Positions 4,095-50,893 of a DNA stretch of 64,000 nucleotides are shown here, piece by piece; the stretch's first letter is position 1, and the number at the start of each line of letters is the position of its first letter. The translations under genes and the position numbers were made by a program. The DNA is taken from positions 69,913-133,912 of the forward strand of contig JAVERC010000005.1 of the NCBI GenBank assembly GCA_034007295.1, read 5' to 3'. Source of the DNA: Desulforegulaceae bacterium. Lineage in GTDB: Bacteria > Desulfobacterota > Desulfobacteria > Desulfobacterales > JACKCP01. The notes below the pieces were generated by a model. It had not been told where the DNA came from. It did not search any database and saw only the letters and a program-made list of their open reading frames with translations.

Positions 4095-5498
4095 TCAGCG
4101 CCTTTTTTTAAGTCTTTTATTTTTACCTTTTTTGGTCGGTTTTGTATTTGAAGGTCTTGTTGGAAGGTTTTCCATAAAACCTTCTCTACCCTTTCTCTGC
4201 TTCATATAAAAAACAACAGGAGTCATTTCAAGACCTGTTTCAGCTCTTATCTGATTTATAAGAAATCTCTTGTATGAAAAATGAACTGCATCAGGGTAGT
4301 TCACAAACGAAACAAAAGTAGGAGGACAGGCTTTTACCTGTGTTGAATAATAAAATTTAAGCCTTCTGCTTTTATGGTATGGAGGAGTATTTTTTTGAAC
4401 AGCTGTATTTATAATGTCATTTACTTTAGCTGTGGAAATTCTTGTTGAATATTCTGCATAAACCTTATTTACCAGATCAAAAATCTTGTGAACCCTTTTT
4501 CCTGTTTTTGCAGAAATTGTAATTACAGGTGCATAGGAAAGAAAAGCAGCCTGATATCTTAGATCATCAACAAAGCGTTTTTGAGCCTTTGGATCTCTTT
4601 CCACAAGATCCCATTTATTTAAAACAAAAATTGCACCGCAGCCTCTTTCTTCTGCATAACCTGCAATTTTTACATCCTGTTCTGTAACACCTTCTGAGGC
4701 ATCAATCAAAATCAGTGCAATATCGCATTTTTCAAGGCTTTTTAAAGCTTTTATAACTGAAAACTTTTCAATTTTTTCATTAACCTTGCCTTTTCTTCTT
4801 ATGCCTGCTGTATCGACTATAAGGTAATTTTTCCCGTCATAACTTATTTTAGAATCTATGGAATCCCTTGTTGTTCCGGGCACATCACTTACAACCATTC
4901 TTTCTTCGCCAAGAATTTTGTTTGTAAGTGAAGATTTTCCTGCATTAGGTCTTCCTACAATTGCAATTTTTATAATATCTTCTTTTTCATCTTCCATGTC
5001 TTCTGATGGAATAAGCTCGCATACAGCTTCAAGAAAATCATTTATTCCATATCCGTGCTCTGCTGAAACAGGAAAAAGATATTCTGTTCCTGTCTGATAA
5101 AAATCATAAATCAAATCTTCCTTTGCAGGAGAATCTACTTTATTCACAAGAAAAAATTTCGGTTTATCTATATCTCTTACAAGATCTAGAAGATCATAAT
5201 CATATGATGAAAGGCCTGATTTACCGTCAAAAACAAGAACAATTATATCACTTTCTCTCATACCTGCTTCAAGCTGGGATTTTATTTCCTTTGCAAAGGA
5301 ATCTGTATCATTTGATAAAAAACCGCCTGTATCAACAAGAAGAAAAGATTTGTCATCATAAACCACATCACCGTAGTTCCTGTCCCTTGTAACCCCGGGC
5401 ATATTGTCTACTATTGCATCCCTTGACTTTGTGAGTCTGTTGAAAAGGGTTGATTTTCCAACATTGGGTCTTCCAAAGAGAGCTACTGTTTTTTTCAT
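4095..5498 (-). CDS. der: ribosome biogenesis GTPase Der (EngA), double GTPase domain
   Basis: Two G domains (GRPNVGKST and GRPNAGKSS) plus a KH-like C-terminus and a basic tail. Confidence 0.95.
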   Translation of the reverse strand: MKKTVALFGRPNVGKSTLFNRLTKSRDAIVDNMPGVTRDRNYGDVVYDDKSFLLVDTGGFLSNDTDSFAKEIKSQLEAGMRESDIIVLVFDGKSGLSSYDYDLLDLVRDIDKPKFFLVNKVDSPAKEDLIYDFYQTGTEYLFPVSAEHGYGINDFLEAVCELIPSEDMEDEKEDIIKIAIVGRPNAGKSSLTNKILGEERMVVSDVPGTTRDSIDSKISYDGKNYLIVDTAGIRRKGKVNEKIEKFSVIKALKSLEKCDIALILIDASEGVTEQDVKIAGYAEERGCGAIFVLNKWDLVERDPKAQKRFVDDLRYQAAFLSYAPVITISAKTGKRVHKIFDLVNKVYAEYSTRISTAKVNDIINTAVQKNTPPYHKSRRLKFYYSTQVKACPPTFVSFVNYPDAVHFSYKRFLINQIRAETGLEMTPVVFYMKQRKGREGFMENLPTRPSNTKPTKKGKNKRLKKRR

Positions 5499-5776: not shown

Positions 5777-6904
5777 ATGGAAGATAATATTTATAAAAAA
5801 CTTGCAAATCACCTTGACTCACTGCCAGGGGGATATCCTGAAACAAAATCAGGGGTTGAAATAAAAATTCTAAAGCTTCTTTTTACAAGAGAAGAAGCAA
5901 AAACAGCACTTCTTTTAAACCTTATTGCAGAAAACTGTAAAACAATAGCTTTCAGAGCAGATAAGTCTGTTGAAGAAACCTTTGAAATTCTAGAACAAAT
6001 GGCTTCAAAAGGTCTTATTTTAAGGAACAAAGAAAAAAATAAAGAGCCAAAATACATGGCACTTCAATATGTTGTAGGAATCTGGGAATTTCAGGTAAAC
6101 AGACTGACCCCAAAACTTCTTGAATATATGGAAGAACATATCCCCCACCTTCTTGATGTAAAAACCTGGAAAAAAAACCCTCAAATGCGTACCATTCCAA
6201 TTGGGGAAAGCATAGACAACTCATTAAAAGTCATGACCTATGAAAATGCTTATGAGCTTGTTGAAAAAAAGGAAAATTTTGTAATAAGCCCATGCATTTG
6301 CAGAATGGAAATGAGACTTCAGGGAAAAGGATGCAATAAGCCAATTGAAACCTGCATTTCATTTGGGGATGAAGAGGATTTTTATGTAAAAAACAACATT
6401 GGAAGAAGAGCCACAAAACAGGAAGTTCTTGATGTTTTAAAACTTGCCAACAAAAAAGGACTTGTTCTTCAGCCAAGCAATGGAAAAGACATTCACTGGC
6501 TTTGCTGCTGCTGCGGATGCTGCTGCGGAATTTTAAGAACAGTAAAAACATATCCAAAACCATCACATATTTTATCCTCACCTTTCAGAGCAGTTGTTTC
6601 AAATGATTCATGTACAGGGTGCAAACTCTGCTTAAAAAGATGTCCAATGGATGCAATTGAAATTAAGGATAAAAAAGTAAAAATAGATTATGACAAATGC
6701 ATTGGATGCGGACTTTGCGTTTCAACCTGTCCTTCAAAAACTCTCAAACTTGAAAGAAAACCAAAAGGAACATATCCAAAAGTTTCACAAAATATTGTTA
6801 CCTCATCATTAAAAACTCTTCATGCAAGAGGCAAAACAAGTCCAATGGAACTATCCAAAATGATTGGAAAATCATTTTTTGACAGATACAAGTCAAAAAA
6901 ATAA
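5777..6904 (+). CDS. Fe-S protein with a 2x[4Fe-4S] ferredoxin domain and a poly-cysteine motif
   Basis: CTGCKLCLKRCP and CIGCGLCVSTCP ferredoxin motifs, preceded by WLCCCCGCCCG and CICRMEMRLQGKGC. Confidence 0.7.
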   Translation: MEDNIYKKLANHLDSLPGGYPETKSGVEIKILKLLFTREEAKTALLLNLIAENCKTIAFRADKSVEETFEILEQMASKGLILRNKEKNKEPKYMALQYVVGIWEFQVNRLTPKLLEYMEEHIPHLLDVKTWKKNPQMRTIPIGESIDNSLKVMTYENAYELVEKKENFVISPCICRMEMRLQGKGCNKPIETCISFGDEEDFYVKNNIGRRATKQEVLDVLKLANKKGLVLQPSNGKDIHWLCCCCGCCCGILRTVKTYPKPSHILSSPFRAVVSNDSCTGCKLCLKRCPMDAIEIKDKKVKIDYDKCIGCGLCVSTCPSKTLKLERKPKGTYPKVSQNIVTSSLKTLHARGKTSPMELSKMIGKSFFDRYKSKK

Positions 6905-9603: not shown

Positions 9604-11772
9604 ATGCACAAGGAACTGTTTTCGCCCATAAAAATAGGAAATCTCAATGTAAAAAACAAAATTGTAATGGCACCAATGGGAAACATAAACATGGCAGACC
9701 CCATAGGAAGGCCGCTTCAGAAAATGATTTCATATTTTGAAGAAAGGGCAAAAGGAGGAACAGGTCTTATAATAAGCGGGCTTGTTCCTGTTCCATTTGG
9801 GATTGACCCGACAATTTCAGAAGAAAACAACACAACATATTTCCCAAGAATTGACGGATCATCCAGAACAAGAATGTCAGGATGGAGAGACCTTGTCTCA
9901 ACTCTTCACTCCTATGACTCAAAATTTTTTATCCAGCTCACAGCAGGACTTGGAAGGGTCGGTTCTCCTGAATGTGCATTAAAATTAAAGCTTCCAAAAT
10001 CAGCATCTTTTAACAAAAATTTTTATCTTCCGGCTATTCCACACTTTCCGTTTACTGACATGGCAATAAAAAAAATAGTAAAAAGCTTCGGCCAGAGTGC
10101 AATAAATGCCAAGGTATGCGGAGCAGACGGAATTCATCTTCACGGCCATGAAGGTTATTTAATGGATCAGCTCACATCCCTTCCCTGGAACAGAAGAAAA
10201 TTCGGAAGATACAAAAACAGATTTCAATTTGCCATAGACATTGTAAAGGAAATAAAAAATATCTGCGGAAATGACTTTCCTGTAATTTACAGAGTTGACC
10301 TTACCCAGGGACTTGAATTTACCTACGGAAAAGAAATATTCAAAAAAAGATTCATGGGAATGGAAAGGACAATTGAAGAAGGCCTTGAATTCTGTAAAGA
10401 ACTTTACAAGGCCGGAGTTGATGCCTTTGATGTTGACAAAGGATGTTATGACAACTGGTTTTTTCCCCACCCTCCTGCATATTTTAAAGATATGCCCTAC
10501 GTTGAGGAAATGGCAGGCAGCTTAAAAAAATTTTTTGAAAAGGAAAATATAAAAGCACCTGTAATTGCAGTTGGAAAACTTGGAAATCCAAAAGCTGCAT
10601 CAGATGTTTTAAAAAACAATACAGCAGACATGATAATGCTTGGAAGACCTCTTCTTGCAGACCCTTACTGGCCGGAAAAAGTAAGAACAGGAAAGGCAGA
10701 TCAGATTGTTCACTGCATTGGAGATCAGGATGCCTGTATTCAGTCTTTTATTCTTGGAGGACATCCCTGCTGCAGCATTAATCCATATGCTGGTTTTGAG
10801 GATGTAAAAATTTTAAAGCCTGCAGATAAAATAAAAAATGTTGCTGTTGTAGGAGCTGGACCCGGAGGATGTGAAGCAGCAATAACAGCAGTAAAACGAG
10901 GACATAAGGTAACCTTGTTTGAAAAAGGGAAAAATATTGGAGGACAATTTTATCTTGCCTCAAAAATGCAGATAAAACATGACGTAAAAACATATTTAAC
11001 AAATCTTGAAAACCGCCTTAAAGCACTTGAAGAACAGGGCCTTGAAATAAAATTAAACACAAAACCTTCAAAAGAAGAGCTTATTTCATCATTTGATTCA
11101 ATTATATGTGCTACCGGAGTAAAACCTTTAATTTTAAATATTAAAGGCCTGGAAAACATTAAATATACAGATTCAAGAACATTACTTGAAAAAAATCTTG
11201 AGCTTGATGAAAATCATAAAAAAATAACAATAATCGGAGGCGGAATTGTAGGATGCGAACTCGCCTGCGAAATGGGTGCAAAATACAAAGATATTGAAAT
11301 TACTGTAATTGAAATGGAAAAAGACCTTATGAAAGGAGTTGTCCAGGCAAACAGGGCAATGCTTTTATGGCTCATGATGGGACTTGGTTCAACGGACAAC
11401 TCAAAAAATCCTCTGATAAAAAATCCTGTAAAAGCTTATACATCTTCAAAAGCAGTGGAAATAACAAAAAATTCAGTCATTATTGAAGCAAACAAAAAAA
11501 GAAAAAATCCTTTCACCCCATGGCATACACTTATCCCTGAAAATATTCACAATCCTTTTGATAAAAAATTAAATATCAATAATACAGAAAAAATTGAAAT
11601 TGATACTGATTTTATAATTTTTGCAACAGGTGCATTGTCAGAAAATTCTCTTTACACAGAAATTTCAAATTCAGATTTTAAGGGAGATATTTTTACAATT
11701 GGAGATTCAAGAGAGCCTGCAAGCGGATGGCAGGCAATTAGTTCTGGAAATGATGTGGCAAGGTTTATCTGA
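9604..11772 (+). CDS. OYE-family FMN oxidoreductase fused to an FAD/NAD(P) domain (2,4-dienoyl-CoA reductase-like)
   Basis: N-terminal OYE TIM-barrel signature (HGHEGYLMDQ), central Cys cluster region and Rossmann motifs VVGAGPGG and IIGGGIVG. Confidence 0.85.
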   Translation: MHKELFSPIKIGNLNVKNKIVMAPMGNINMADPIGRPLQKMISYFEERAKGGTGLIISGLVPVPFGIDPTISEENNTTYFPRIDGSSRTRMSGWRDLVSTLHSYDSKFFIQLTAGLGRVGSPECALKLKLPKSASFNKNFYLPAIPHFPFTDMAIKKIVKSFGQSAINAKVCGADGIHLHGHEGYLMDQLTSLPWNRRKFGRYKNRFQFAIDIVKEIKNICGNDFPVIYRVDLTQGLEFTYGKEIFKKRFMGMERTIEEGLEFCKELYKAGVDAFDVDKGCYDNWFFPHPPAYFKDMPYVEEMAGSLKKFFEKENIKAPVIAVGKLGNPKAASDVLKNNTADMIMLGRPLLADPYWPEKVRTGKADQIVHCIGDQDACIQSFILGGHPCCSINPYAGFEDVKILKPADKIKNVAVVGAGPGGCEAAITAVKRGHKVTLFEKGKNIGGQFYLASKMQIKHDVKTYLTNLENRLKALEEQGLEIKLNTKPSKEELISSFDSIICATGVKPLILNIKGLENIKYTDSRTLLEKNLELDENHKKITIIGGGIVGCELACEMGAKYKDIEITVIEMEKDLMKGVVQANRAMLLWLMMGLGSTDNSKNPLIKNPVKAYTSSKAVEITKNSVIIEANKKRKNPFTPWHTLIPENIHNPFDKKLNINNTEKIEIDTDFIIFATGALSENSLYTEISNSDFKGDIFTIGDSREPASGWQAISSGNDVARFI

Positions 11773-11823: not shown

Positions 11824-14007
11824 TTAGTTTGAATGTTCCATTAAATAAGCTGAAGCATCATCAACCCAATTCCAGAGCTCGCCTTGTCTTTCATTTTTAA
11901 CCTTAGTAAACTCAAGCTTTGCACTGCGGTTTGAGTCTATTACAATCCGGCTTTCTGAAGGATGAAGAATTGGAAGAAGATGAGGAAAATCAGAATTTGA
12001 AATTGAAAGTCTTATTCTGTGGCCTTTTTTAAATACTGCATGTGTAGGCCAGATTTCCATTGAATATTTATAAACCTTATTTTCTTCAATCATATTGGGA
12101 TTTTTGTCTGCATAATCATAAAAAGGATCTGCTGGATCATATCCTGGAGCAATTTCAAAAACATTATTTGGGTCATAGGGTCTGTGTGAAGCTGTAAGCC
12201 ATCCTGAAGTAATATTTCTTGCTCTCCCATCTGGCTGAACGTCATTAATTTCTGCAATCCACTGAACATCTTTTCTGTCCATTGAGTCAAAAAGAAGGTT
12301 TGCATCATATCCAAGTGCATTTTTTATGTCTTTTAGAACAGCTGAAACTGCAAGGGATGAAAGAGGCCTTTTAAAATCCGTTTTTGCATAAAAACTAAGC
12401 TTAAACGGCCCTGCAACTTCTATATCTTCATCTAAAGGCTCAGTTGTAAAGGTAAGAACACCGTCTTCATCAATTCTTTCGTCTTCCCAGGGCATGAGAA
12501 AATCTATATCAAGATTTAAAACAAGTTTTGATGCCTGGGAAACAAGAGCAGGAAGTCCCATAAGCCATCTTGAAGATGATCTGGAAATCAGACCTTTTAA
12601 ATCAAGGGGAGAATGTTCAATTAAAGGATTTGAAAGAAGCCAGGTTGTATCTGTCCAGTTAAGGGATTCCTTCATTTTGTAATTTCTGGAATAATTTGAT
12701 GCTGAAAACCAGTCGCCAAATATAAATGAAGCTTTTCTTTTTGAAAGATAAAAGGTTTTATTTTCAGTAATTTCTTCTGACGGAGGCCAGTTTTTAAGTG
12801 CTTTCCATTTTTCTTTGCCAAGAACATAGCTTAATACGCTGAACTCTTCCATAAAAGGATCGTTTTTACCTTTTATTTTCCAGTCAAACCATCTTGCAGG
12901 AAGCGACATATCCATAATTGAATTTACACCAAGCCCAAGAGAACCTCCAAGATGATACCAGGGGCCCATCACAAGAGCCTTATCTGAAATACTGTGATTT
13001 TTCAGGCCGTGCATGTAATTATTTATTGTTCCCCTTGTAAAAATATCAAACCAGCCGCCTGTCATAAAAACAGGAAGTTTTTCAGAAATCTGTTTTTTAC
13101 CCAAAGGACTGTTGTAAAGATCATTGTTAAATTCGGGAAATGCAGGAAAATCCCAGCCTTGCGGATGATCCTTGGGCCAGTAAATCATTGCAGACTTTGT
13201 TTCATAAAAATCTGTTTTTTCAGCATTTGCAATATCCATTACCCAGTGAATTGGAACATCAAGCTGGCCCAAATGCTCTTCCCATATTTGAGAAGCTTTT
13301 TGAATATCATCAAGATTTATTCCGTTTTCTCCAAGATAAAGAAGGGGTGGAAAAACAGATAAAATATCTACAAGTCCAAGCCAGAGCGGAATAAATTCTG
13401 CATTTACACTCCCTCCGTGCATAACAATATCTTTGTATGCATCTGATTTGCTTACAAGTGGAAAAAGTGCCTTTAAATGTATTGGTTCTCCATTTTCGTC
13501 AGTTTGAATCTGACCTGCTGCAAGAAGCTGTGATATTGCCATATAGGAAGGTCCAATCATACCTACCCTTCCGTCGCAAGAAGGCATGGAAGGAATAAAA
13601 TTGTCAATTATCCATGCATTGTCATAATGCTCAGAAGGCCCAAAAGATTCCCATTCTCCGTTTGAAGACCCTGTACCTCTTATATCAACGCCAACAAGGT
13701 TGTAGCCCTTTGTTACCAGACCAAGGTAAAGCATCATCATAACTTCTCTGCGATATGGTGTTGATATAACAATAGTCGGACAAGGCTGAGCATGAGTTAT
13801 TGCAGTTGCCCATAGTTCAACTGCTTCTCCAGATGAATTTGCAGGAACAGGGATTTTAAGATTAAGATCAACATTCAAATCACTTAAACCAAGCGATTGT
13901 ATTTTTTCCTGAAGCTTGTCAAAACTTGTTTCAGAAGAAACATCACAATAACCGCCTGTAAATAAAACAAAAAAGAAAAGAAAACAAATTAAGGCAATTT
14001 TTTTCAT
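11824..14007 (-). CDS. secreted CocE/NonD-family (S15 X-Pro dipeptidyl-peptidase-like) hydrolase
   Basis: Signal peptide MKKIALICFLFFFVLF and the GVDIRGTGSSNGEW motif characteristic of CocE/NonD. GGGGGAG RBS. Confidence 0.8.
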   Translation of the reverse strand: MKKIALICFLFFFVLFTGGYCDVSSETSFDKLQEKIQSLGLSDLNVDLNLKIPVPANSSGEAVELWATAITHAQPCPTIVISTPYRREVMMMLYLGLVTKGYNLVGVDIRGTGSSNGEWESFGPSEHYDNAWIIDNFIPSMPSCDGRVGMIGPSYMAISQLLAAGQIQTDENGEPIHLKALFPLVSKSDAYKDIVMHGGSVNAEFIPLWLGLVDILSVFPPLLYLGENGINLDDIQKASQIWEEHLGQLDVPIHWVMDIANAEKTDFYETKSAMIYWPKDHPQGWDFPAFPEFNNDLYNSPLGKKQISEKLPVFMTGGWFDIFTRGTINNYMHGLKNHSISDKALVMGPWYHLGGSLGLGVNSIMDMSLPARWFDWKIKGKNDPFMEEFSVLSYVLGKEKWKALKNWPPSEEITENKTFYLSKRKASFIFGDWFSASNYSRNYKMKESLNWTDTTWLLSNPLIEHSPLDLKGLISRSSSRWLMGLPALVSQASKLVLNLDIDFLMPWEDERIDEDGVLTFTTEPLDEDIEVAGPFKLSFYAKTDFKRPLSSLAVSAVLKDIKNALGYDANLLFDSMDRKDVQWIAEINDVQPDGRARNITSGWLTASHRPYDPNNVFEIAPGYDPADPFYDYADKNPNMIEENKVYKYSMEIWPTHAVFKKGHRIRLSISNSDFPHLLPILHPSESRIVIDSNRSAKLEFTKVKNERQGELWNWVDDASAYLMEHSN

Positions 14008-14048
14008 AAATTTCTCCCCCAGATTTTGCTGATTTAATGAATGTGCAT

Positions 14049-14196
14049 ATAGTGATTGACCGAAAACGAAATTTTTTGTTCAGTTTAAGTAGATTTAAAA
14101 TTTAACCTTTAGGATACATTTAGTATTTTGAGGATTAAATTTTGAATCTGACTTTAGAATGGCCCAAAAAGGCCGTTTCCGTTCAGCAACTATATA
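14049..14196 (+). repeat. repeat family 1, full-length MITE-like element (copy 1)
   Basis: atagtgattgaccgaaaacga...aaatttaacctttaggatacatttagtattttgaggattaaattttgaatctgac...ggccgtttccgttcagcaactatata. Ends form ~35-bp imperfect inverted repeats. Confidence 0.75.
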
Positions 14197-14496
14197 CAAA
14201 AATATGATCAGATCTTAAAAAATTCAGGCACTTATGTTTAAAAAACCAGGAATATGCAATTTTAAAACTCTTTGGTTAAATTTACTTTTTTATAATGTAG
14301 GATAGAAATGCAAATATATTTTTATATAATAAACACTGTTTAGTGTTATAATTATACAAACCTTATGTCAATCAATAACTCTTATTAATTATGATTAAAT
14401 TGGAAAAATAATAATAAACATTTGGTCAGAAATTAATTTTGGACAAAAAAATTTAAAAGTCTCTTAAGAATGCAAAACCAAAATTTACCAAATATT

Positions 14497-14537
14497 AACT
14501 AAAAATATAAACCCTGCAAAAATAAATTTTTGCAGGG
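14497..14537 (-). terminator. candidate terminator of the defence operon
   Basis: CCCTGCAAAAA-taaa-TTTTTGCAGGG hairpin. On the minus strand it is followed by a T-rich run and lies ~180 nt downstream of the helicase stop. Confidence 0.5.
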
Positions 14538-14632
14538 CATAAATATTTGAATTAAAAATGATTTCATTGCAAGCACACGAAAAAAAATATTCTGTTTCAT
14601 TTCAAATGACAAATTCAATCTTTAGGATACTT

Positions 14633-14702
14633 TGAAAATATCTTATTTTTCAACTGGCAGTTCAATAATTCCATTGTTTCAAATGTCTTGTCATGGGAAC
14701 GG
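14633..14702 (-). pseudogene. icd: relic fragment of icd (matches codons ~421-457 of the intact icd at 29018-29127, with a ~36-nt internal deletion)
   Basis: ttccattgtttcaaatgtcttgtcatgggaacgg vs icd ttccattgcttcaaatgtcttgtcatgggaaccg (32/34). tgaaaatatcttatttttcaactg vs tgaaaatatctcctttttcaactg (22/24). The two blocks are collinear and in the same orientation. Confidence 0.8.
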
Positions 14703-14714
14703 CTAAATATTATT

Positions 14715-17432
14715 TCACCAAGGCTCACTCAATTTATTGACAATATCACGACGGGATAAAACAGCAGAACATCTTTCCCATAAATGTGATTCAGGAGAAA
14801 CCGTACCCCTGTATTTTACAGTAAAAGCATCCTGTGCTTTTTTTCTTTCATGGATATATTCATTGACTCTTAATTTAAGCTCTTCCTCATCCTCTATCCA
14901 TTCATCATCAATTGTATCGGGAAGGCTTCCAAAAATATCATAAGTGTCTTTCAGGCGTTCAGACAATACCTTGTAAATCTTTTCATCCTGAGTTTCACAA
15001 TAAACCAGATTGAGCATATCAACAAACTTTCGGGTCTGCCCAAACCTTTTTATTCTTCCAAGTCTTTGTTCAAGCCTTGAAGGATTCCATGGAAGATCAA
15101 TATTAATCAGAGTGCCTAAGGCCTGAAGGTTTAAACCTTCACATGCAGCATCAGTTGCAACAACAAGACGTATTTCCCTTGTTTTTACTGCGTTTTTTAT
15201 TATTTCACGTTCAACATTGTTAAATTGCTCTCCAGAAAACAGTCCGCTTTTTCCTGCACCTGCATAAACTGCAATAACTTTATCATTAAAAAATTTTGCA
15301 AGCTCTTTTGCAATCCATTCAGCTGTATCATAATACTGGCTGAAAATAATACATCCATGTTCCAGCCAGGTTTTGCCTTCAGTTCTAAATTCTGTTAAAA
15401 ACCATTTAATTGTATTAAATTTGGAGTCAACAGCCTCTGGACGGCTAAGCTGATTTTCAATTTCCTTTAAACAGGCAGCTTCAGCAGGAGTCATTCCCGA
15501 AAGAATATGTTCTACCTGTTCAATTTGATCTTCATCTTCATTTGAAATTGAATGCCTGAGCATTTTTTGAGCTGTTTTAAGGCCCGATGCAAAACTGGAG
15601 CAGATTCTTTGAAGCATAAGAGATTTCATAAACCCGCCTGATTTTGTTCTTGACTGAAGCAGTTTACTGAATTTTTCAGCCTGTTCATAAGCGACTCTAA
15701 ACGGTGTATTTACAGGAATACCTAACCCAACAAACCGAGATTTATACATGGTAAGATTATTTGCAGCAGGATGGGTATTAACCCCAATTTTTTCCAAAAG
15801 GCCGTCGTCTTCAAGCTGTTTTCTTTTTCTTAATACAGTATGACGCAAAACAGGGTTATTTTTTTTGAAAAATTCTGGTGCCAGACAATCAGAAAGCCAC
15901 ATTTCCTGAATCATATATTCCAAATCTTCAAACCGGTGAGAACAAATAAAAGTGTTTGGATCTATGGAAAGTGAATTCCTTATCTCATTAATAACATAAT
16001 CTTCATCACCTGGCGGCAAAGGATTGCTCAGCCAGTACCAGGCATCTTTTTCAGAGTTTACATTTACTTTTCCAGTTACCATTGGAACAGCCTTTTCATA
16101 ATCCTGCCAGGGAGATAATGAATCTCCTAGAACAAAATCTGCACCGCTGTTTAAAATCCCCAAAAGATCCCAAAGCTCTTTTACATTAGTTTGAATTGGA
16201 GTAGCAGTTCCAAGAATAATATGCCTTGTCCTTTTTCCAATCTTCATCATAAATGCAAGCAGATTATTTGGCTCAAATGATTTACTGCCTAATCCTCCCT
16301 TTGCCCTTGCCTTATGTGCTTCATCAAGAATAATTGTACCAAAACGATTTTTCAAAAGCATGCCGGCCTCTTTTACAAACTCAGAATTTTCCCTTTGATG
16401 CATTATTAATCCGGTTGAAATAATTGCTATCTTATAAGGACATTTTTTTATTGAAGATGAATCTCCCCTTGGGGATAAAAGCTGACCTTCAACTCCAAAC
16501 CAGGCTTTTTTTTGCGAAGACCACACAGCAGTTGGAACACCAAGTTTATCCATCATTTCAATCTGCCATTGAATTGTAAGAGTTGAGGGTGCAAGAATTA
16601 ATACAGGCCCGTCTTCAAGAAGAACACTGACCAATGCACTTGCTGCCATTGAAAGTGTTTTCCCCACACCAACCTCATCTGCTAAAAGCAGTCTGGCTTT
16701 ACCGTATTTTTCCCTGTGTTCAATAAACATGGTTACAAAAGACCGCTGCCAGGGCTGCAATTGTTCTCCGCCCCGGTATATTGGAGCTTCTGCCAGAGCA
16801 GCTGCCGGAATTTCATACGGTTTTAAAACTTCTACACTAACCTCTCGACGCTGAGCAACACGGCTTATTTCTGCCAAAATTGTTTCAGGCAAAGGAACAC
16901 CGTCATTCCATAAAGACCAGAATTCTTGTTCAACCCAGTCTGCACTGTCTGCATCATCATCTTCCCAAATCAATTCATAATTATCTGAAAAAGCACTTTT
17001 TGATTCATTTACAGAACCAATAAAAGATTTTCTTTTTCCATTTGAATAATGAATAGAGCCTGCTTTTCCATGAAGAAAAAGACGCTCACGGGGTACAACC
17101 CGAATTTCCACATTGCCTGCCTGAAGTAATTTGGAAAGAATTTTATAACGCTCTTTTTTTAAAATTGATTCTGCTTCAACATCTACCTCATTCCAGCGTT
17201 CTTTCAATGCTCTGTTTCGTCCTGTTGCTACCTGAAAATCAATAAGGTCAAGTTCTGAATTGCATACAATTTTTACTTCCGGAATTTTTGCAATTTCTTC
17301 ACCAACAAGCTCAAAAATTGAACTTCTGAAATAACCTGCAATCCTGAAATATTTTGAAGCACCATCAAGAGCTTTAGCTAAAAACTCTTTATCAAGTTTT
17401 TGTGTTCTGGATGAAAAACGTTTTATGGTCAT
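14715..17432 (-). CDS. PLD-like domain / SNF2-family helicase fusion (last gene of the defence operon)
   Basis: N-terminal HKD-like LHGKAGS...FIGSVNES. Helicase motifs ADEVGVGKT (I), ILDEAHKAR (II), GTATPIQT (III), ACEGLNLQ (V) and QRLGRIKRFGQ (VI). Confidence 0.85.
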   Translation of the reverse strand: MTIKRFSSRTQKLDKEFLAKALDGASKYFRIAGYFRSSIFELVGEEIAKIPEVKIVCNSELDLIDFQVATGRNRALKERWNEVDVEAESILKKERYKILSKLLQAGNVEIRVVPRERLFLHGKAGSIHYSNGKRKSFIGSVNESKSAFSDNYELIWEDDDADSADWVEQEFWSLWNDGVPLPETILAEISRVAQRREVSVEVLKPYEIPAAALAEAPIYRGGEQLQPWQRSFVTMFIEHREKYGKARLLLADEVGVGKTLSMAASALVSVLLEDGPVLILAPSTLTIQWQIEMMDKLGVPTAVWSSQKKAWFGVEGQLLSPRGDSSSIKKCPYKIAIISTGLIMHQRENSEFVKEAGMLLKNRFGTIILDEAHKARAKGGLGSKSFEPNNLLAFMMKIGKRTRHIILGTATPIQTNVKELWDLLGILNSGADFVLGDSLSPWQDYEKAVPMVTGKVNVNSEKDAWYWLSNPLPPGDEDYVINEIRNSLSIDPNTFICSHRFEDLEYMIQEMWLSDCLAPEFFKKNNPVLRHTVLRKRKQLEDDGLLEKIGVNTHPAANNLTMYKSRFVGLGIPVNTPFRVAYEQAEKFSKLLQSRTKSGGFMKSLMLQRICSSFASGLKTAQKMLRHSISNEDEDQIEQVEHILSGMTPAEAACLKEIENQLSRPEAVDSKFNTIKWFLTEFRTEGKTWLEHGCIIFSQYYDTAEWIAKELAKFFNDKVIAVYAGAGKSGLFSGEQFNNVEREIIKNAVKTREIRLVVATDAACEGLNLQALGTLINIDLPWNPSRLEQRLGRIKRFGQTRKFVDMLNLVYCETQDEKIYKVLSERLKDTYDIFGSLPDTIDDEWIEDEEELKLRVNEYIHERKKAQDAFTVKYRGTVSPESHLWERCSAVLSRRDIVNKLSEPW

Positions 17433-17433: not shown

Positions 17434-18414
17434 TTATCTTAATCTTAAATGAGGTCCAATATAGCCGACATATATCCGGCAAGTTTCATTATCAGGATAA
17501 AAATGCAGCCTGTAACCTGCCGACATTTTTATATGCATTTCAAAAAATTCCTGTTTTCCGCTTGGAAGCCAGAATTCTCTGTCACGACGAAGTTTAGGAT
17601 TGTCCCTGACAGTTTGCGATTCACCGCTTACTTTAAACGGCAGGCCAAGATTTTTTAAACTTTCAATTCTAAATTCTTTTATCTCATTACTTTTCCATTG
17701 CAATGCAAAATCATTTAAAACAGAAACTGATTTTTTTACCTGCTCTAAAATAGTTAAAGATCCTGACCATGAGTTTAACTGCTGCTCAGATTTTCCACAA
17801 AGGACTACCCCTGGATAATACTCTTCAAACAATAAAAGAACTTCTTTTCCAGATAAAAGAGACTGATTTCTTTTTTCAATTAGCTCAGGTAAAAATTTTT
17901 GAAATACAAAGTAATTATAAAAATTTTGAATTTCACATTTTTGCTCTTCAATTTCACCATTTTCCAAATTCATTTTAGAAATATCAACGGTCAAAGGAGA
18001 AACTGTCCACGGAGCTCTTGTACTAAAGCTCAAAATCGGCGAATCATGCCAGGCAGCAGCCGATAAAGCACTATAATCCATGCATCCATTTAAACTAACC
18101 TCAAACACATCTGCTCCCTCGTTTATATCTTCTGTATTAAAAAAAGGAGATTGAGTTGCAATGGAACGAAAAGCCCTTAGCATATCACGGTTTTTTCCTT
18201 TTAAATTTTGATCATGCCAGTTTTTCCAATAATAACCTGGTGCAAGTTCAATCAAAAACCATGATTTATCCACAGACTGATCAACAAGGATTGTTTTCAG
18301 GCCTGCATTTTTAGCTTTTATACAGATTTTAAGAAAGTCAGGGACAGCTTCTTTTGCATAATCACTATGATCAAAAGGAAGTGAATGATGATTAAATACC
18401 ATGCAGTCTGTCAT
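17434..18414 (-). CDS. hypothetical protein (326 aa), no family recognised
   Basis: ATGA start/stop overlap with the upstream ATPase gene and a 1-nt gap to the helicase start, so it is probably translated. C-terminal tail GYRLHFYPDNETCRIYVGYIGPHL. Confidence 0.6.
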   Translation of the reverse strand: MTDCMVFNHHSLPFDHSDYAKEAVPDFLKICIKAKNAGLKTILVDQSVDKSWFLIELAPGYYWKNWHDQNLKGKNRDMLRAFRSIATQSPFFNTEDINEGADVFEVSLNGCMDYSALSAAAWHDSPILSFSTRAPWTVSPLTVDISKMNLENGEIEEQKCEIQNFYNYFVFQKFLPELIEKRNQSLLSGKEVLLLFEEYYPGVVLCGKSEQQLNSWSGSLTILEQVKKSVSVLNDFALQWKSNEIKEFRIESLKNLGLPFKVSGESQTVRDNPKLRRDREFWLPSGKQEFFEMHIKMSAGYRLHFYPDNETCRIYVGYIGPHLRLR

Positions 18415-19520
18415 AAAAGTTTCTCCAGTAAGCGGTCACCTTCATCAAAAAAACCTTGCGGCCATAAATCAATTCTTCCGCTTTCGTCTATTTCAGGATT
18501 AACAACCAGAGCTTCATGAACTGAAGTTTTACTTCTTTCAAGATAAAAAACCTTTACTTCGTGGGAGGGTATAATTTTTTCACGAACACAAACCCTTATT
18601 CCATTAAGAAAATGATCTGAATGGGTTTCTATAAAAAGCTGAACTCCGTTGTTTGCAGCTATAGAACAAAGCCTTCCAAGAGTTGACTGACCTGCAGGAT
18701 GAAGATGAGCTTCCGGATTTTCAATAATTATCATATCACCAGGCTTTGAGCGAAGTATTGCAGTTAGAACCGGCAATACAAAAGTCAAACCAAACCCTAC
18801 ATTCTGTGGTTTGAAATCTGCTGTAATATCAGTTCCCTGCTGAAAGGCATAATTAAGTGAAACAACATTCATTGCAGGCTGAAGCTTTGCATGAATCCTT
18901 ACCCCAGGTGAAATTTCAGCCATCCATTTATCAAGGTTGTCAAGCAGGGACAATGATGGTGAATCCTTATGTTTCAGTGCTTCAACAGCCAAAGGAGACA
19001 ATCCGTATTCAGCAATATAGTGAGCTGTAAATTCACCATGATTGCCAAGGGAATTTAAATCTCTAATATAATAATCTGAAACTTCATATGATGATTTAGG
19101 ACTTATCCTGTCTGCACTTAAATATTGAAACTGTCTTGTAAAAAGACTTTTTTCAACAATTTTTTCATTAATGTTACTGCTGCCTGCCTTTAAAGGCTGC
19201 AAATCTGATTTACTGTCATAATCAAAGGAAAAATTAAAGGGATTTTCATTTTCCCAGGTAAGTGTAAATTCAATTGCTTCCTTTTCTGCACTTTCAGCTA
19301 AAATATCCTGCCCTGTACCCAGGGATACATAATCGCCTTTTAAAAGAAGTCCTTTATTAAAAAGAGTGTTTTTTTCATTGGACTGTCTAAGCAGTAAAAG
19401 AGCCTGAATAAGTGAAGACTTGCCCATACCGTTAAGACCGCTGAATAAATTAAGCGATGCAAGGGGAAACTGTGCGTTATTCAATGATTTAAAACGCTGA
19501 ATTCTTATAAATTTAAGCAT
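18411..19520 (-). CDS. ABC/SMC-like AAA ATPase (AAA_15/21 with a DUF3696-like C-terminus)
   Basis: Walker A GLNGMGKSS, Walker B/D-loop MIIIENPEAHLHP and H-loop ETHSDH. 8-nt overlap with the upstream DUF262 gene. Confidence 0.8.
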   Translation of the reverse strand: MLKFIRIQRFKSLNNAQFPLASLNLFSGLNGMGKSSLIQALLLLRQSNEKNTLFNKGLLLKGDYVSLGTGQDILAESAEKEAIEFTLTWENENPFNFSFDYDSKSDLQPLKAGSSNINEKIVEKSLFTRQFQYLSADRISPKSSYEVSDYYIRDLNSLGNHGEFTAHYIAEYGLSPLAVEALKHKDSPSLSLLDNLDKWMAEISPGVRIHAKLQPAMNVVSLNYAFQQGTDITADFKPQNVGFGLTFVLPVLTAILRSKPGDMIIIENPEAHLHPAGQSTLGRLCSIAANNGVQLFIETHSDHFLNGIRVCVREKIIPSHEVKVFYLERSKTSVHEALVVNPEIDESGRIDLWPQGFFDEGDRLLEKLL

Positions 19521-20700
19521 TTAAAATCTCCAATATAAGCTGGTTTACTTTATCACGCCTTGTTCTGTAATGATCTTTTTTCTGGGTTGAATAGGTAATT
19601 GACCTGAAATAATCATTATCAGTTTTCATAAGTTCAAAATGTTTATCTTCAAGTGCTTTTTTTCTCTTAATCAGACCCTGCATTTTTTCATCTGACAATC
19701 CTGAAAGAGCATTCATCCAGACTTCAAAAAGAGTTGAATTTTTACGCCTTTTTTTTGAGTGATTACCGTCTGTAATTTTTTCAAAGGCCCTGTCTCCAAA
19801 AATTTCCCAGCACCTTTTTATTGCAAGACAAAATGAATTTTTAAATTCAATCAGCTCTTCCTTTGAAGAATTTTCCAGTTTTTTTATCATCTCATCAAGA
19901 AATGTTGCTATATTTTTTTTACTTTGTTCATAATCCATAAATCTAAATGCAAGAAAGCGGAGAACCATTTCCTGGTCAACCATTCTGCGGCTCTGATTTC
20001 CAATTGTTTTAACAAGAAACTCATCCTCTGCAAGTTCTTCAAGATATTTTCTTATTTCAGGTTTTACCATGGCGTTTCTGATTTCCTGGTCATTTAAAAC
20101 AATACCGCCTGTATTTATTCTCCTGAAAATTGAATACTTTACGGCATCAGGTGTACCAGACTGAATTAAAAACTCAGTAACAGAACATTCATTTATTCTT
20201 CGCTGATAGGTTCTTGGAAGATCATCATAGGAAAACCCTGTAAAATCTTTCAGATATTCCAGCCCCCGAAGTTTTAATTTTTTGTCTATTACAAACTTTT
20301 TTATGGCAGAAAGCCTTTGAAGTCCGTCTACAATAAGCCAGTTGTCATCATTTGATGCATCAAAATAAAATGCAGGAAGAGGAATACGTATAAGAATAGA
20401 TTCAATAAGCCTGGACATTTTCTGATTGTCCCACAAATCTCCATGTCGTTGAAAATCCGTATATAAATCAATATCTTCGTTTACAATCCTGTTAATAATA
20501 TTACTCAAGGCATCCTGTTTTGGTATTATATTTATTTCAGAGGGGTCAAAAGGTTCTTGCATCACAGGATCTAAATCTTCATTGTCATCTTCTTTTTCAG
20601 ATGCTGTATCAACATTTTCAATCTCAATAATATCTTCTATAAAATTGTTTTCTAATTTTTTTTTCATGCTTGAATTATCTTGATTTTCACAAAAAGTCAT
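19513..20700 (-). CDS. DUF262 (ParB/DndB-like) domain protein, no HNH/DUF1524 domain
   Basis: Core LIESILIRIPLPAFYF...VDGLQRL (the DGQQR motif of DUF262). Acidic N-terminal tail. No C-terminal His-Me finger seen. Confidence 0.8.
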   Translation of the reverse strand: MTFCENQDNSSMKKKLENNFIEDIIEIENVDTASEKEDDNEDLDPVMQEPFDPSEINIIPKQDALSNIINRIVNEDIDLYTDFQRHGDLWDNQKMSRLIESILIRIPLPAFYFDASNDDNWLIVDGLQRLSAIKKFVIDKKLKLRGLEYLKDFTGFSYDDLPRTYQRRINECSVTEFLIQSGTPDAVKYSIFRRINTGGIVLNDQEIRNAMVKPEIRKYLEELAEDEFLVKTIGNQSRRMVDQEMVLRFLAFRFMDYEQSKKNIATFLDEMIKKLENSSKEELIEFKNSFCLAIKRCWEIFGDRAFEKITDGNHSKKRRKNSTLFEVWMNALSGLSDEKMQGLIKRKKALEDKHFELMKTDNDYFRSITYSTQKKDHYRTRRDKVNQLILEILNA

Positions 20701-20702: not shown

Positions 20703-23700
20703 TTACAACCTCTGATTTCTAACAGCTTCTGCAATAATTCTTGCACAGCTTGCCTCAATATCTGGTTTAAATATTTTTGTTGGTTTAAGGTCTTCTCTTT
20801 TTTCAGCTAAATAATCTGCCATTTTGGACAAAAGCCCTTTGTTCTGAATATAATTTGGACAGTTTTCCATAAGATGCAAAAGCACATCATCAACTTCAAA
20901 CTCTTTTGAAAGCTCAAACATTGAATAAAGAAGAGCCCTTAAAGGTGTTTTGGAAATTTCAGCATCACCTGACATCAAAGAACCTTTAAATTCAGTAGAA
21001 AGCTTTAGCCTTGCATTGTTTGCCTTTGATTTGTCGCTCATAAGCTGATCATAATGGCGTACTTTAAAAGCCTTGGCAAAATTCTGGTAATTATCAAGGG
21101 TTTTATTTCCCTGATGCTCCATTTCAGCCATTTTAAGATAAAACCGCTCAACAGCCTGAAGTTTCTGCCATTCTTCCTTTTCAAAACCAACAGGAACAAG
21201 AAACTGAACAGCAGTTTGAACTGCAAAGTCTATAAGTTCATCAACAAAGGTTTTTTTGTTTTTCTGCCTTGGAGCTTCTGCCTCTGAAACCATATCCTTT
21301 CCGTCAATTTTTGAATATGATGTAAGAACTTTCAAGGCTGCGGCATAACCTGCCATATGTAGATCTGCATCAGAATAAAGGCCTTCCAGACTTTTTTCTT
21401 TAACTTTTGTATCAAGGCCCATAAGAGATTCAACCTGCTCTTTTACTGCATCCTGAATTTCCCAGGCAAGGTCGTCTCTGAATGTTTCAAGTTCCCTGTG
21501 GCGTTTTCTTAGAACAAGAATAATTGTTCCCTTTACATTTGCACCTTTTCTAAGGGATGACTCTGTTTCTGTTACAACATACCATGCAGCAGTAACCTGA
21601 AGACCGCTTGCCCAGATAATATTTGTCATATCAGACCAGATAGAACCGCTTTGATGGGTAAACATTAAAACCTGAATTCCGTTGTCAGGCATTTTCTGTG
21701 CTGTTTTACCATAGGCTGATATCATTGCCCGCCTGAAATCCTCATCTTCTCCCTTTATTGCAAGAGACCGCCTGCTGTCCCATGTCCAGTGTGAAAATTC
21801 CTCAGGCGGATTTTTTCTCAGCCAGGCAATAAAAAATTCTGTTATTTCTTCGTATTTTACTGCATCTCCGTATGGGGGGTCGGTTATGTAGATATCGTTT
21901 TCTGTTTCAATATTTTGTGCAGGGTGAGTTTTAACGGTTGTTTTCACATCATAAAAGGGATAGCTTTTACAACCTTTTAAAGTTATTTGATTAGTTAAAT
22001 ATTCAAGAGATCTGCACCCATAATTATAAAAAGTGTTCAATGCTTGATTATAAAATACGTGACCAACAGCATCTACACCTTCTGAAGGATCCCACACACA
22101 AAGTTTGCTACTTCTATTAAGTGCCTGGGATAAAGAAATATACACATCACTTGTTTTTGCATATTTTTTCAATAAACCATTAATATATAACTGCCGAGGA
22201 TTAAACAAATGATGCCAATGGGTCCAGCCTCTGGTTCTAATTGGCTCATCTGTTTTCTCTCCGGCTTCAATAACCATATCAGGAATATATCCTTTTTCCT
22301 GCCACTCACCAAGATGGGTTTTGACATAATCAATAACCTTTTTTTCACGCTCAAGGTCATCATTTGTAACTGAACGGAAATGATATTCGTATTGCGAGCT
22401 GTTTGGCTTTTTTTTCATCCATTGAATACAATAAAGCCGTTCCTGGAAAATATCATCGGGTCTTGGAATAAAATCGGATTTTTCCCACAGCCTGAGACGG
22501 TTTTTGTTTTCTTTGCCGTCCTTATAATCGCCTCGGATTGTTTTAATATTTACACGATGTTGCTTTATACCATCAAATGAATGAACTAAATATCCATTCT
22601 GAATAGTTCCATCTTTTGCTTCATTAACTTCATCTTTTGTAGAAACATATTCAATACTAATATCATATGAGAAGTCTAAATAATTTGGTAACAATTTTGC
22701 AACAACCCTTTTACCCTTACTAATAATAAATGAAGGCAACAAAGGAACTCTCCACCCAGTTTCTGGACATATTACTTCGTGACAATACAAAAAAGCTTTA
22801 GCCTGCCAACCGTTATTATCAGTTTCAACGCCTAATTCATCAATTTTTTCTCTAACTTTTTTTACCAAGCCTGCCTGATGCTTTTCAATAAAAACTCTTT
22901 GAGCTGGTGATGCACCAACAATATTTGCTCCGCCCCAGGTAAGCATACAGGCAATGGGATTAAGATCTGATGCATAAACATCACATCCAAGCCTTGCTGC
23001 TTCAAAAGGAATCTGGCCTGAACCACAAAATACATCAGCAAGTTTTGGTCTGTGTCCAAATCTTGCAATTCCCATCTGCTCAACAAGCTCTGAAAAACAA
23101 TCTGCACTTGTACCAAGATGTTTGTTAACCTTTTCCCATATATGAAAATGAACTTTGTCTCCAAGTTCTTCCGGCCTTTTTGCCTTAGAAACATTTTCAT
23201 TATATTTTGAGTATGGAAGAGCCTTTGCCTCAAGTTCAAGCCTTTGATCTTCAGAAACAGAGTCTGCCCATAAAAGAACCGGAACTTTTCTTTTTTTTTT
23301 GCCGGACTGAACTACTTCAACCTCATAATCCTTAATATCAAAAGGTGTATAAATGGGAAGTTCAACATCTTCTTTAACATAAAACCATTTATTTGTTTCA
23401 AGCCCTTTTACCCTTAAAGCAATATCACAAGGCTTTATTCTTCCAAGACGCAAAGCCATGGATTTTTCATCCATTCCCATTAAAAGCTCAAAAACCTCAA
23501 GATCTTTAAGGCTGTCATCTGTTAAGGGAAGAAGGCAGCCAAGTGTACATGCCTTGTTTAAAATAAGGGGTTTTCTTCCTTTCCAGTAACTTCCAAGAGC
23601 AGTCAGGGTTTTCCCTTGATTTGCCATTTGTTCCTTGAAACTTTCAGCAGATATTTTCTGCACAGGAAAAAGTCCTTCAATAAGAGCTGGTTTATCTTTC

Positions 23701-27582: not shown

Positions 27583-28011
27583 TTATATTTTAGGAAACAA
27601 TATTTCATTTTTATCTGAAAATTTTAAGTAAATATCTTCAATCATATCATCAATAACAGCGAAAGGAAGTTCTGTAACATCTATAAAGTACCTTGATGCA
27701 AAGCTATTTTTATTTATAGAATGATTAAATGTATCCTCTTCTAATTTTTCTCCTGCAAATTCTTTAAACAATTTAACAGCTTCATCAACTTGTTCAGGAT
27801 ATCTTTCTGAGGCAGAAGGTGTAGTTAAAAGATCAATTATCAATTTATTATTTTTTAAATGGTGAATCCATACATCACAGCCTCGTTTTATTTGTAAAAT
27901 TTTAGCATATCCATTTTCATTTCCTGAAAACCCCTTAACTTTCCCAGCTTTATTAAGTCCATCAACTTTTTTTGCAGCTAAATACAGTTTGTAATCTATT
28001 GTTTCAGTCAT
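27583..28011 (-). CDS. hypothetical protein (142 aa), monocistronic, island-proximal
   Basis: Intact ORF with its own terminator. No recognisable motif. Confidence 0.5.
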   Translation of the reverse strand: MTETIDYKLYLAAKKVDGLNKAGKVKGFSGNENGYAKILQIKRGCDVWIHHLKNNKLIIDLLTTPSASERYPEQVDEAVKLFKEFAGEKLEEDTFNHSINKNSFASRYFIDVTELPFAVIDDMIEDIYLKFSDKNEILFPKI

Positions 28012-28107: not shown

Positions 28108-28170
28108 GATTAAATTTTGAATTTAAGGCATAAAATGGACAAAAAACCGTTTTCGTTCACCAACTACATA
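28108..28170 (+). repeat. repeat family 1, right-half fragment overlapping the icd stop codon
   Basis: gattaaattttgaatttaaggcataaaatggacaaaaaaccgttttcgttcaccaactacata matches the right half of copies 1 and 8. The icd TAG (28164-28166) lies inside it. Confidence 0.7.
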
Positions 28171-35634: not shown

Positions 35635-35808
35635 AAAAACCTCCAGATATTTTCTACTTAAAATTACATAGCCTTAAGTTTATACATGTATGCAATTAGA
35701 ATAAAATACTGTCAATACAAAAAAAGCAGGTCTTTTTTTAAACTTTTATCTAAAATTAAACATTTTTTTATTGACGACACATAAATACAAACAGCATTAA
35801 ATTATTAA

Positions 35809-35954
35809 ATAGTTGCTGAACGAAAACGGCCTTTTTTGTCCATTCTTAAGTCAGATTCAAAATTTAATCCTCAAAATACTCAATGTATCCTGAAGGTTAA
35901 ATTTTTCACCTTCCGTAACTGAACAAAAAATTCTCGTTTTCGGCCAATCACTAC
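35809..35954 (-). repeat. repeat family 1, full-length (copy 4)
   Basis: atagttgctgaacgaaaacggccttttttgtccattcttaagtcagattcaaaatttaatcctcaaaatactcaatgtatcc...ctcgttttcggccaatcactac. Confidence 0.8.
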
Positions 35955-36104
35955 TTAGACAAAAATTGAGTTTTTATAAAAATTTATTTTTTAATGAATA
36001 TAAATTGAAATTGTGCGTTGTTGAGTTTAATCTGTTCCTTTGCTATTAATTCAAATAATGGATTTATAGTTTTTACAAAAAAAGCATAAAAAGCGGCAGG
36101 GAAA

Positions 36105-37163: not shown

Positions 37164-37192
37164 AGAAATTTGATTTTTTAAGGTATTTAAAT

Positions 37193-37343
37193 AATTGATT
37201 GACCGAAAACTAGAATTTTTTGTTCCTTTAAAGGAAGATGAAAAATTTAACCCTTGGGTGATATATAGAGTATTTTGAGGATTAAAATTTGAATCTGATG
37301 CTAAAATGGGCAAAAAAGAAGTTTTTGTTCAGCCACTAAGTAT
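37193..37343 (+). repeat. repeat family 1, full-length (copy 5)
   Basis: taattgattgaccgaaaactagaattttttgttcc...gagtattttgaggattaaaatttgaatctgatg...gtttttgttcagccactaagtat. Confidence 0.75.
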
Positions 37344-37374
37344 GCATAAAATTTTTATGAAAGGTTTAATATAA

Positions 37375-41069: not shown

Positions 41070-41071
41070 AA

Positions 41072-41113
41072 ATTGATTGACCATAAAGTCAAAATTTTTT
41101 GTTCAGCAAGTAT
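41072..41113 (+). repeat. short form of repeat family 1
   Basis: attgattgaccataaagtcaaaattttttgttcagcaagtat, starting 3 nt after the relA stop. Confidence 0.5.
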
Positions 41114-41127
41114 GTAATAAAATTTTA

Positions 41128-41170
41128 AACCCCGGCATAATATTTATACCGGGGTTAAATTCTTTTTTTA
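41128..41170 (+). terminator. rho-independent terminator after relA
   Basis: AACCCCGG-N13-CCGGGGTT followed by aaattcTTTTTTTATTT. Confidence 0.65.
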
Positions 41171-41232
41171 TTTAACCTAAATTAATTATTTTGAAATCAA
41201 GACTTGATCTAAAATAGATTATAAAACTTATA

Positions 41233-41378: not shown

Positions 41379-41399
41379 TTAGGCTTAAAAAGATTTTTA

Positions 41400-44166: not shown

Positions 44167-44174
44167 AATTTTTT

Positions 44175-48801: not shown

Positions 48802-48877
48802 TATAAGTATAATAAGCCAAATTAATTAAAAAATATAAAACCCTTAATTCAGGTTAGATTAAAAATTTATAGTTTTC

Positions 48878-50890: not shown

Positions 50891-50893
50891 TTT

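Follow-up and report, generated by a model that had tools for sequence, protein, structure and literature searches.

The textbook example of an isocitrate dehydrogenase (icd) fragment left by an insertion is the icdC pseudogene of prophage e14 in Escherichia coli K-12 (Hill et al. 1989, as cited in PMC13626634), and events that proceed without a mobile-element recombinase include Campbell-type single crossovers and homology-facilitated illegitimate recombination (HFIR; PMC3240628). Variable segments are also described for Vibrio cholerae, whose T6SS effector/immunity arrays undergo, according to the title of the study, sequential displacement of downstream cassettes (PMC5361080), and for Pseudomonas aeruginosa, which has integrase-free core defence hotspots (PMC10250203). 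Among defence systems, the Type-2 BREX-related class is defined by a DUF499 ATPase (often with FnIII-like domains), a standalone DUF3780 protein, an N6-methyltransferase and an HKD-helicase (PMC12839542).

In the window, by which is meant the whole 64,000-nt stretch of DNA that was analysed, a defence island of this class lies beside an intact icd gene, and a 70-nt stretch at its far edge (14633–14702, the relic) repeats an internal part of that gene. It is very probably a dead, icd-derived recombination scar at the distal junction of the island, and it constitutes a new example of a known scar type rather than a new biological system.

The icd-like stretch and its surroundings

14511–14538, minus strand: intrinsic-terminator-like hairpin with a T-run, ~177 nt downstream from the stop of the helicase gene
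14633–14668, minus strand: relic block 2, from icd 29018–29057, with a 3-nt deletion and five substitutions including GGA>TAA (stop)
14669–14702, minus strand: relic block 1, from icd 29094–29127 (codons ~421–432), SHDKTFE[A>T]ME, 32/34 identities
14703–14714, minus strand: 12-nt linker between helicase stop and relic, in which homology to the island of the closest island-bearing relative (L054) fades
28164–30389, minus strand: icd, intact monomeric isocitrate dehydrogenase, 741 aa (PF03971, 1262 bits); the relic's source is 29018–29127

When 14008–14714 is compared with the whole window by blastn, 14633–14702 matches icd 29018–29127 in collinear blocks and in the orientation of icd, that is, on the minus strand. 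Positions 14669–14700 equal 29094–29125 at 31/32 identities (E 3e-9), an extension by two bases giving 32/34, and 14633–14669 align with 29018–29054 at 31/37 (E 2e-5), with 22/24 in the core of the block; the two counts given by an earlier sequence-only reading of this DNA (32/34 and 22/24) are thus reproduced. The gapped local alignment of the 707-bp spacer with icd scores 75.5, against a mean of 32.1 (sd 3.6, maximum 47) for 200 dinucleotide shuffles of the spacer (z ~12), so that the significance expected by that reading is borne out. The one argument for a chance similarity or a misassembly is that the match is short and lies in AT-rich DNA; the shuffles, the blastn E value of 3e-9 and the identical junction on a separate contig make this explanation practically negligible. 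The contig in question, from an independent Logan assembly (L057, SRR8449815), is 100% identical to window 23224–14133, junction included, and the relic is therefore not one assembler's artefact.

Relic and matching icd segment differ in length by 40 nt, the relic being the shorter, and 40 is no multiple of three. As 37+3 nt of icd are absent between the blocks, block 2 is out of frame relative to block 1; the gap had been taken for an in-frame one of ~36 nt, and the pairing of QLKNKIF with icd AVEKGDIF comes from a wrong frame. Translated as icd is, block 2 gives II-ELPVEK*DIF, with a TAA stop and a 3-nt deletion. Altogether the relic carries 6 substitutions and 2 indels per 68 nt with respect to icd, i.e., ~9% divergence plus indels; it corresponds to codons 421–458 of 741, an internal part of the gene, and ends 854 nt before the icd stop. 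Throughout the window and 57 fetched loci, relic-like sequence occurs in icd genes and in one partial icd copy (in the relative L001) and nowhere else, from which it follows that the relic is no dispersed repeat, a case that the earlier reading had named as one that would refute it. Neither tblastn nor word-7 blastn finds further icd remnants in 14008–14632.

As to its allele of origin, block 1 falls within 77 nt over which all three lineages agree completely, and in block 2 both of the two nucleotide sites that separate the window and sister alleles carry the window-type base. In the set of the 120 closest Icd proteins, the motif [10 protein letters not shown] is confined to the lineage of the window and the sister lineage. 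Because of this clade-specific motif and the window-type bases, the relic can be assigned to the icd allele of its own lineage; it is a local product and did not come in with the island from a distant donor.

The helicase stop codon lies at 14715–17, 12 nt from the relic as had been noted, and the icd stop is 13.46 kb off, close to the ~13.5 kb first estimated. The description of the adjoining DNA as AT-rich and non-coding stands in so far as 14199–14632 has 21.7% GC and no credible ORF, but the spacer is not featureless: it holds half of a dispersed repeat (14578–14635) and the terminator. Because this good intrinsic terminator (14538–14511, minus strand) comes after the relic, the latter is probably part of the island operon's 3' UTR, which makes its transcription probable and raises the question as to whether it could be a functional element, either a regulatory RNA of the helicase-operon 3' UTR, a small ORF or a homology pad between island and icd. 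The sole ORF at the relic is a 37-aa GTG ORF that overlaps the end of the helicase gene and runs across the relic. A function of any of these kinds is nevertheless most improbable: the relic is sense to the icd mRNA and hence cannot pair with it, its predicted RNA fold does not differ from that of shuffles (z = 0.01), an Rfam scan of the relic returns sub-threshold chance matches only, the icd frame is broken by a stop codon and a frameshift, and the closest relative with the same island does without it. Lacking an RNA-family match, an unusual fold and a credible ORF, the relic is a pseudogene scar that bears no sign of function, and in annotation its 70 bp should be called neither gene nor att site.

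The defence island and the dispersed repeats

11824–14007, minus strand: CocE/NonD (S15 peptidase-like) hydrolase gene, strain-specific
14715–17432, minus strand: HKD(PLD)-SNF2 helicase, last gene of the island (Pfam PF13091 plus SNF2/Helicase_C; PADLOC PLD_Helicase)
17434–20700, minus strand: NsnC, NsnB and NsnA-like genes, between methyltransferase and helicase; largely deleted in L050 and L054
20703–27371, minus strand: DUF1156 N6-methyltransferase, DUF3780 and DUF499 ATPase with Fn3-like domains (Pfam, PADLOC)
27583–28011, minus strand: 142-aa ORF between icd and island, no Pfam or PADLOC match

The island yields Pfam matches to PF04465 with Fn3_assoc, PF12635, PF06634 and PF13091 with SNF2/Helicase_C, and full-length PADLOC matches to DUF499, DUF3780, DUF1156_MTase and PLD_Helicase; its four core genes thus fall within the definition of the Type-2 BREX-related, DUF499-centred defence systems. 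The Nsn module (17434–20700) comprises GmrSD_N, AAA_15/DUF3696 and a 326-aa protein, of which remnants of 43 aa and 290 aa are left in L050 and L054. The helicase protein is 80–84% identical to proteins of Bacillota and Proteobacteria (Enterobacterales, Acinetobacter, Pseudomonas), an unusually high cross-phylum conservation for a defence gene. In the methyltransferase gene, 21858–23036 (~aa 229–622) is 65–77% identical to L054 between flanks of 98–100%; this looks like a swapped target-recognition region, and would give two near-identical islands differing methylation specificities. The 142-aa ORF is conserved as 144 aa in L050, L051 and L054 and always accompanies the island.

Pfam and PADLOC scans detect no integrase, transposase or resolvase in the island or the flanking ORFs, in keeping with the missing integrase of the sequence-only reading. 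GC content was considered as an island marker and rejected, as island (36.7%), icd (36.2%) and whole window (34.6%) are about alike. On the distal side, the CocE-type gene has no orthologue in the close relatives, its best match beyond the strain's own cluster being 55% identical; exact-protein look-ups for it and for window 5777–6901 return short same-strain contigs only, and those for the left-flank genes at 9604–11769, 546–1298 and 4098–5498 return no matches. A comparison of the cocE–icd interval in relatives, which the earlier reading had proposed, accordingly has no counterpart to work on: the interval is absent elsewhere.

14042–14200 (+), 35800–35961, 41226–41385, 37189–37347, 58922–59076: full copies of the palindromic repeat; 14042–14200 stands upstream of the CocE/NonD-type gene
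14578–14635, plus strand: left half (profile positions 23–84), abutting the relic with a shared TGA
28108–28169, plus strand: right half (profile positions 95–157), overlapping the icd stop codon
33490–33541, 43818–43878, 44069–44167, 53156–53289, 41066–41138: further fragments

A ~155-bp palindromic repeat, an element separate from the relic, occurs in at least 13 copies or fragments in the window, as judged by a profile built on five full copies. What had been called repeat copy 1 of the island is therefore one member of a dispersed family and not specific to the island, whose boundary is the helicase stop or the repeat half and not the full repeat copy by the CocE-type gene. The repeat is MITE/REP-like: its termini are inverted repeats, its centre forms a long hairpin (-48 kcal/mol), and its copies lie in intergenic DNA; it is frequent in L001, L050 and L053 as well. 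Two contigs break off within such copies, the ENA contig L049 at window 35950 and the Logan contig L055 at window 14126.

The 13.47 kb made up of relic, island and 142-aa ORF lies between two complementary repeat halves in the same orientation, which together lack 10 profile positions. TGA is common to relic and left half at their junction, as is typical of deletion by illegitimate recombination; the linker/relic junction shows no clear microhomology. A second repeat family interrupts a further copy of the palindrome (43818–43878 plus 44069–44167) in its middle, and since this different element has also hit the centre, the middle of the palindrome looks like a recurrent break or insertion point. 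That second family is ~200 bp long (window 48607–48802, 50810–50893 and 43902–44089; L001:14618–14826 and 5092–5288); one of its members occupies the middle of a palindromic repeat copy (43879–44068), and another sits in the insert of L001 near the start of its displaced icd copy.

These arrangements bear on a rival explanation of the relic as templated filler, the main rival to the homology-anchored model set out below. The 13.47-kb segment would have entered the middle of the palindrome that lies at the icd stop, in one illegitimate event, or a later deletion would have been sealed there, with short icd patches copied by template switching from ~0.9 kb away, in the manner of SPDIR, the short-patch type of double illegitimate recombination, or of microhomology-mediated repair; the relic would then never have been part of a longer icd duplicate. 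The complementary halves around the segment (23–84 at 14578–14635, 95–157 at 28108–28169, 10 positions missing), the centre-split copy and the TGA microhomology are what it would leave, a source in the local icd allele is what it would use, and the shortness of the relic, in two collinear patches with a 40-nt skip, suits it well. SPDIR-type events, moreover, are described as inserting ectopic genomic single strands at microhomologies (bioRxiv 10.1101/2023.11.22.568220). Half copies are common, however (~6 of the 13 repeat loci in the window), so that two flanking halves independent of each other are not very improbable and may be what is seen here. The filler reading also has to accept the icd-like orientation and the placement at the far junction as coincidences of 50% each, and ~9% divergence plus indels as the result of error-prone copying or considerable age.

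Related genomes and the origin of the scar

A scan of a genome collection with Icd finds one close relative, L001 (Desulfobacteraceae MAG HK-STAS-DESU-1, JACKCP010000004.1), all others being at most 70% identical, and a metagenome scan with Icd finds nothing closer than 68% and no further empty sites. In L053 (GCA_020633935.1; Icd 92% identical), icd is directly followed by TonB-dependent receptor, O-methyltransferase and ABC transporter genes, with neither island nor extra icd piece after it. L001 is near-identical to L053 except for a 2.7-kb insert, in which an MCP gene on the opposite strand is flanked by the duplicated last 1282 bp of icd; the duplication begins at icd position 29446 in window numbering. 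Within L001:10001–16252, the displaced 3' copy forms a 421-aa ORF 2.7 kb downstream of the intact icd. The 5' part of the intact gene is identical to L053 and its last 250 nt are window-type (57–59/60), while the displaced copy starts with 240 nt unlike any other allele (~88%) and ends, over its last 250 nt and the downstream DNA, as L053 does; the middle 480 nt of the two copies have been homogenised by gene conversion. This reciprocal mosaic fits one homologous crossover of the chromosome with a circular DNA that would have carried an icd 3' fragment, and no integrase is present in the insert. A site-specific event at a fixed core, by comparison, would leave no foreign icd sequence at the start of the displaced copy. 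Past the icd stop, the similarity between L001 and the window simply fades, and no common repeat breakpoint appears.

The same island lies beside icd in L050, L051 and L054 (JGI 3300035043, Logan SRR11801594; Icd 99%), at 98–100% identity except for the swapped methyltransferase centre and the largely deleted Nsn module in L050 and L054. Homology between L054 and the window ends at 14707–14714, a few bases from the helicase stop, and the stop codons themselves differ (TGA vs TAA); the relic thus sits at the distal edge of the sequence common to two island-bearing strains, which places it at the island boundary as the sequence-only reading had it. Beyond the helicase, the DNA of L054 is unrelated to that of the window and carries DUF4198, MMPL, DUF1302, DUF1329 and AraC genes, then the O-methyltransferase gene common to L053. 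A degenerate copy of the palindromic repeat (L054:20020–20122) stands where synteny with the island-free L053 resumes, upstream of that O-methyltransferase gene, and repeats therefore bound the variable segment in L054 too. The relic itself is absent from L054, the closest island-bearing relative, and from three similar contigs. Window and L054 differ by roughly 1–3%, and as the ~9% divergence of the relic, with its indels, is far above this, the relic appears older than the split of the two, and its loss in L054 is suggested; such dating is approximate. On these comparisons the DNA after icd is a hypervariable spot of the clade. A true empty site, with icd, a full repeat and a CocE-type gene in succession, was not found among the genomes obtained.

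The icd gene of the window is itself a mosaic. Compared with L053 its divergence is 3.4% over 29700–29077 and 7.3% over 29076–28420; the best change-point, 29076 (log-likelihood gain 5.0, modest support), falls within the interval to which the relic is homologous, and the gene has several mosaic boundaries besides it. Over the last 250 nt (28164–28416), beyond a sharp boundary near 28417, divergence from L053 reaches ~18%: the clade has two alleles here, ~18% apart (24% in protein), and L001 has both, one per icd copy. Outgroup proteins are equally distant from the two (56/86 each), so that no direction of change can be read from them. Between the window and L050, 7 of 20 icd differences fall within 43 nt (28725–28767), several of them L001-type bases, and this looks like a short gene-conversion patch. 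A 3' end as mosaic as this makes icd an unsafe phylogenetic marker in the clade.

The rise in divergence just 3' of block 1 could be seen as the trace of an e14-like integration, the logic that the sequence-only reading had proposed for the relic. Block 1 (29094–29125) would then be an att core within icd, at which an element inserted, supplying a new 3' end of ~930 nt and displacing the old one, with the integrase and most of the displaced fragment lost later; the near-identical 31/32 direct repeats in icd and at the far end (14669–14700) might be copies of such a core, and the step from 3.4% to 7.3% at 29076, one of several mosaic boundaries in the gene, might mark a replacement 3' end. Yet in L054, which shares both the island and the icd 3' end, the far-end repeat is missing, and the duplication in L001 starts elsewhere (29446), with a mosaic that speaks for crossover within homology and against a fixed core. 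No recombinase lies in or beside the island, the BREX-related cargo includes neither phage nor ICE genes, and the fragment, an internal one, ends 854 nt short of the icd stop. The E. coli icd gene is of the dimeric PF00180 type, and the PF03971 gene of the window is unrelated to that target. An e14-like origin is accordingly improbable, if clearly less so than chance or function, and the proposed icd-targeting logic fails on these counts. The earlier proposal survives in its general form, in which recombination long ago placed an insertion beside or within icd; this fits both the L001 mosaic and the step at 29076, whereas the site-specific part of the proposal is not supported.

The reading that we prefer, at about even confidence, is that the relic is the remnant of a partial icd duplicate, and hence the scar of an integrase-free, homology-anchored event that installed or exchanged the 13.4-kb island just downstream of icd. 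Donor DNA from a closely related strain would have extended from icd ~29127 through the icd stop, the 142-aa ORF and the island to a point 12 nt beyond the helicase stop. A single crossover with the chromosomal icd within common sequence, either as a Campbell-type circular integration or as an equivalent one-sided homologous event, would have left a hybrid but intact icd, followed by the island and, after it, by a displaced copy of icd from 29127 onwards. This copy would have eroded by a 40-nt internal deletion and by point mutations, including the stop codon, and a ~0.9-kb deletion would have run from icd 29018 into the centre of the palindromic repeat after icd, sealed at the TGA microhomology. 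From L001 we infer the same kind of origin for the relic of the window, and the succession of deletions is likewise reconstructed.

Five observations are explained by this homology-anchored model: that the relic is directly oriented, distally placed and of the local allele, that icd shows a step in divergence, and that a recombinase is missing. Direct orientation and location at the distal end of the island are both required of a single-crossover product, and the relic shows both. There is, in addition, a precedent at the same locus, namely L001, which equals the island-free L053 plus an insert with a reciprocal icd mosaic; the full reciprocal pattern can be followed there against L053, and in the window 70 nt of a displaced copy would survive. 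Templated filler, by comparison, does not predict the divergence step at 29076, and the event demonstrated at this locus by L001 is of the homologous type; it is thus a distinctly less probable origin, albeit one of real weight. Five points weaken the homology-anchored model in turn. With 70 nt left, the continuation of the displaced copy to the stop is not visible; to explain the relic-free L054, one of the lineages must have been rearranged once more at almost the same place; the breakpoints in the repeat halves, 10 positions apart, become partly coincidental, and a single insertion into the repeat centre would be simpler; the change-point at 29076 is modestly supported in a gene with other mosaic boundaries; and the true empty site of this strain was seen in none of the genomes obtained.

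More tentatively still, the icd 3' part together with the palindromic MITE-like repeat that overlaps its stop might form an integrase-free hotspot of cassette exchange in this Desulfobacteraceae lineage, with crossover in icd on one side and breakage at the centre of the repeat hairpin on the other. Were this so, the BREX-related island, the MCP gene and the TonB receptor gene would be cargo exchanged between strains, and the partial icd copies, 1282 bp in L001 and 70 bp in the window, would be the footprints of such exchange. The relic is of interest as a datable footprint of how a defence island devoid of mobility genes came to lie beside a core metabolic gene. Taken with the L001 duplication, it provides concrete evidence that islands of this kind can move by homologous or illegitimate recombination anchored in a neighbouring core gene, and it suggests that palindromic dispersed repeats mark the breakpoints.

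Comparison with known systems

In SPDIR, short ectopic genomic patches are inserted at microhomologies, much as the two icd patches would have been; as described, the process concerns microindels within a locus and not the junctions of 13-kb insertions, and it is not demonstrated here. The core defence hotspots of P. aeruginosa share with this locus a variable spot bounded by a core gene, the lack of mobility genes and a content that varies between strains. They differ in that only the icd boundary is conserved here, the distal flank being strain-variable, and in that a palindromic repeat stands at the breakpoints. In the T6SS arrays of V. cholerae, displacement reportedly takes place through recombination in a conserved upstream gene, with stranded remnants left behind. 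Their likeness to the present locus lies in the variable region after icd, filled by a TonB receptor gene, an MCP gene or a defence island; gene families and cargo are others, and the arrays of orphan genes found there contrast with a single 70-nt remnant here.

The e14/icdC pair remains the closest textbook analogue. In both cases an icd fragment in direct orientation lies at the end of the insert far from the intact gene, and the intact gene is a hybrid. By comparison with e14, which brings its own integrase and uses a fixed att core, no recombinase is found here; icdC is the C-terminal end of the gene, whereas the relic is internal and 70 nt long; and the target of e14 is not homologous to the monomeric isocitrate dehydrogenase of this locus, whose closest relative has the island without the fragment. 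The likeness is thus one of outcome and not of mechanism. Mechanistically, the relic belongs with Campbell-type or homology-facilitated illegitimate recombination, with which it shares one-sided homology (the icd 3' part), a mosaic anchor gene and the absence of a mobile-element recombinase. Classical HFIR with linear DNA replaces recipient DNA and does not duplicate the anchor, and the duplicate expected from a circular substrate would in the window be almost wholly deleted, so that the relic can be assigned to the Campbell type only as a putative member, while L001 represents the complete product.
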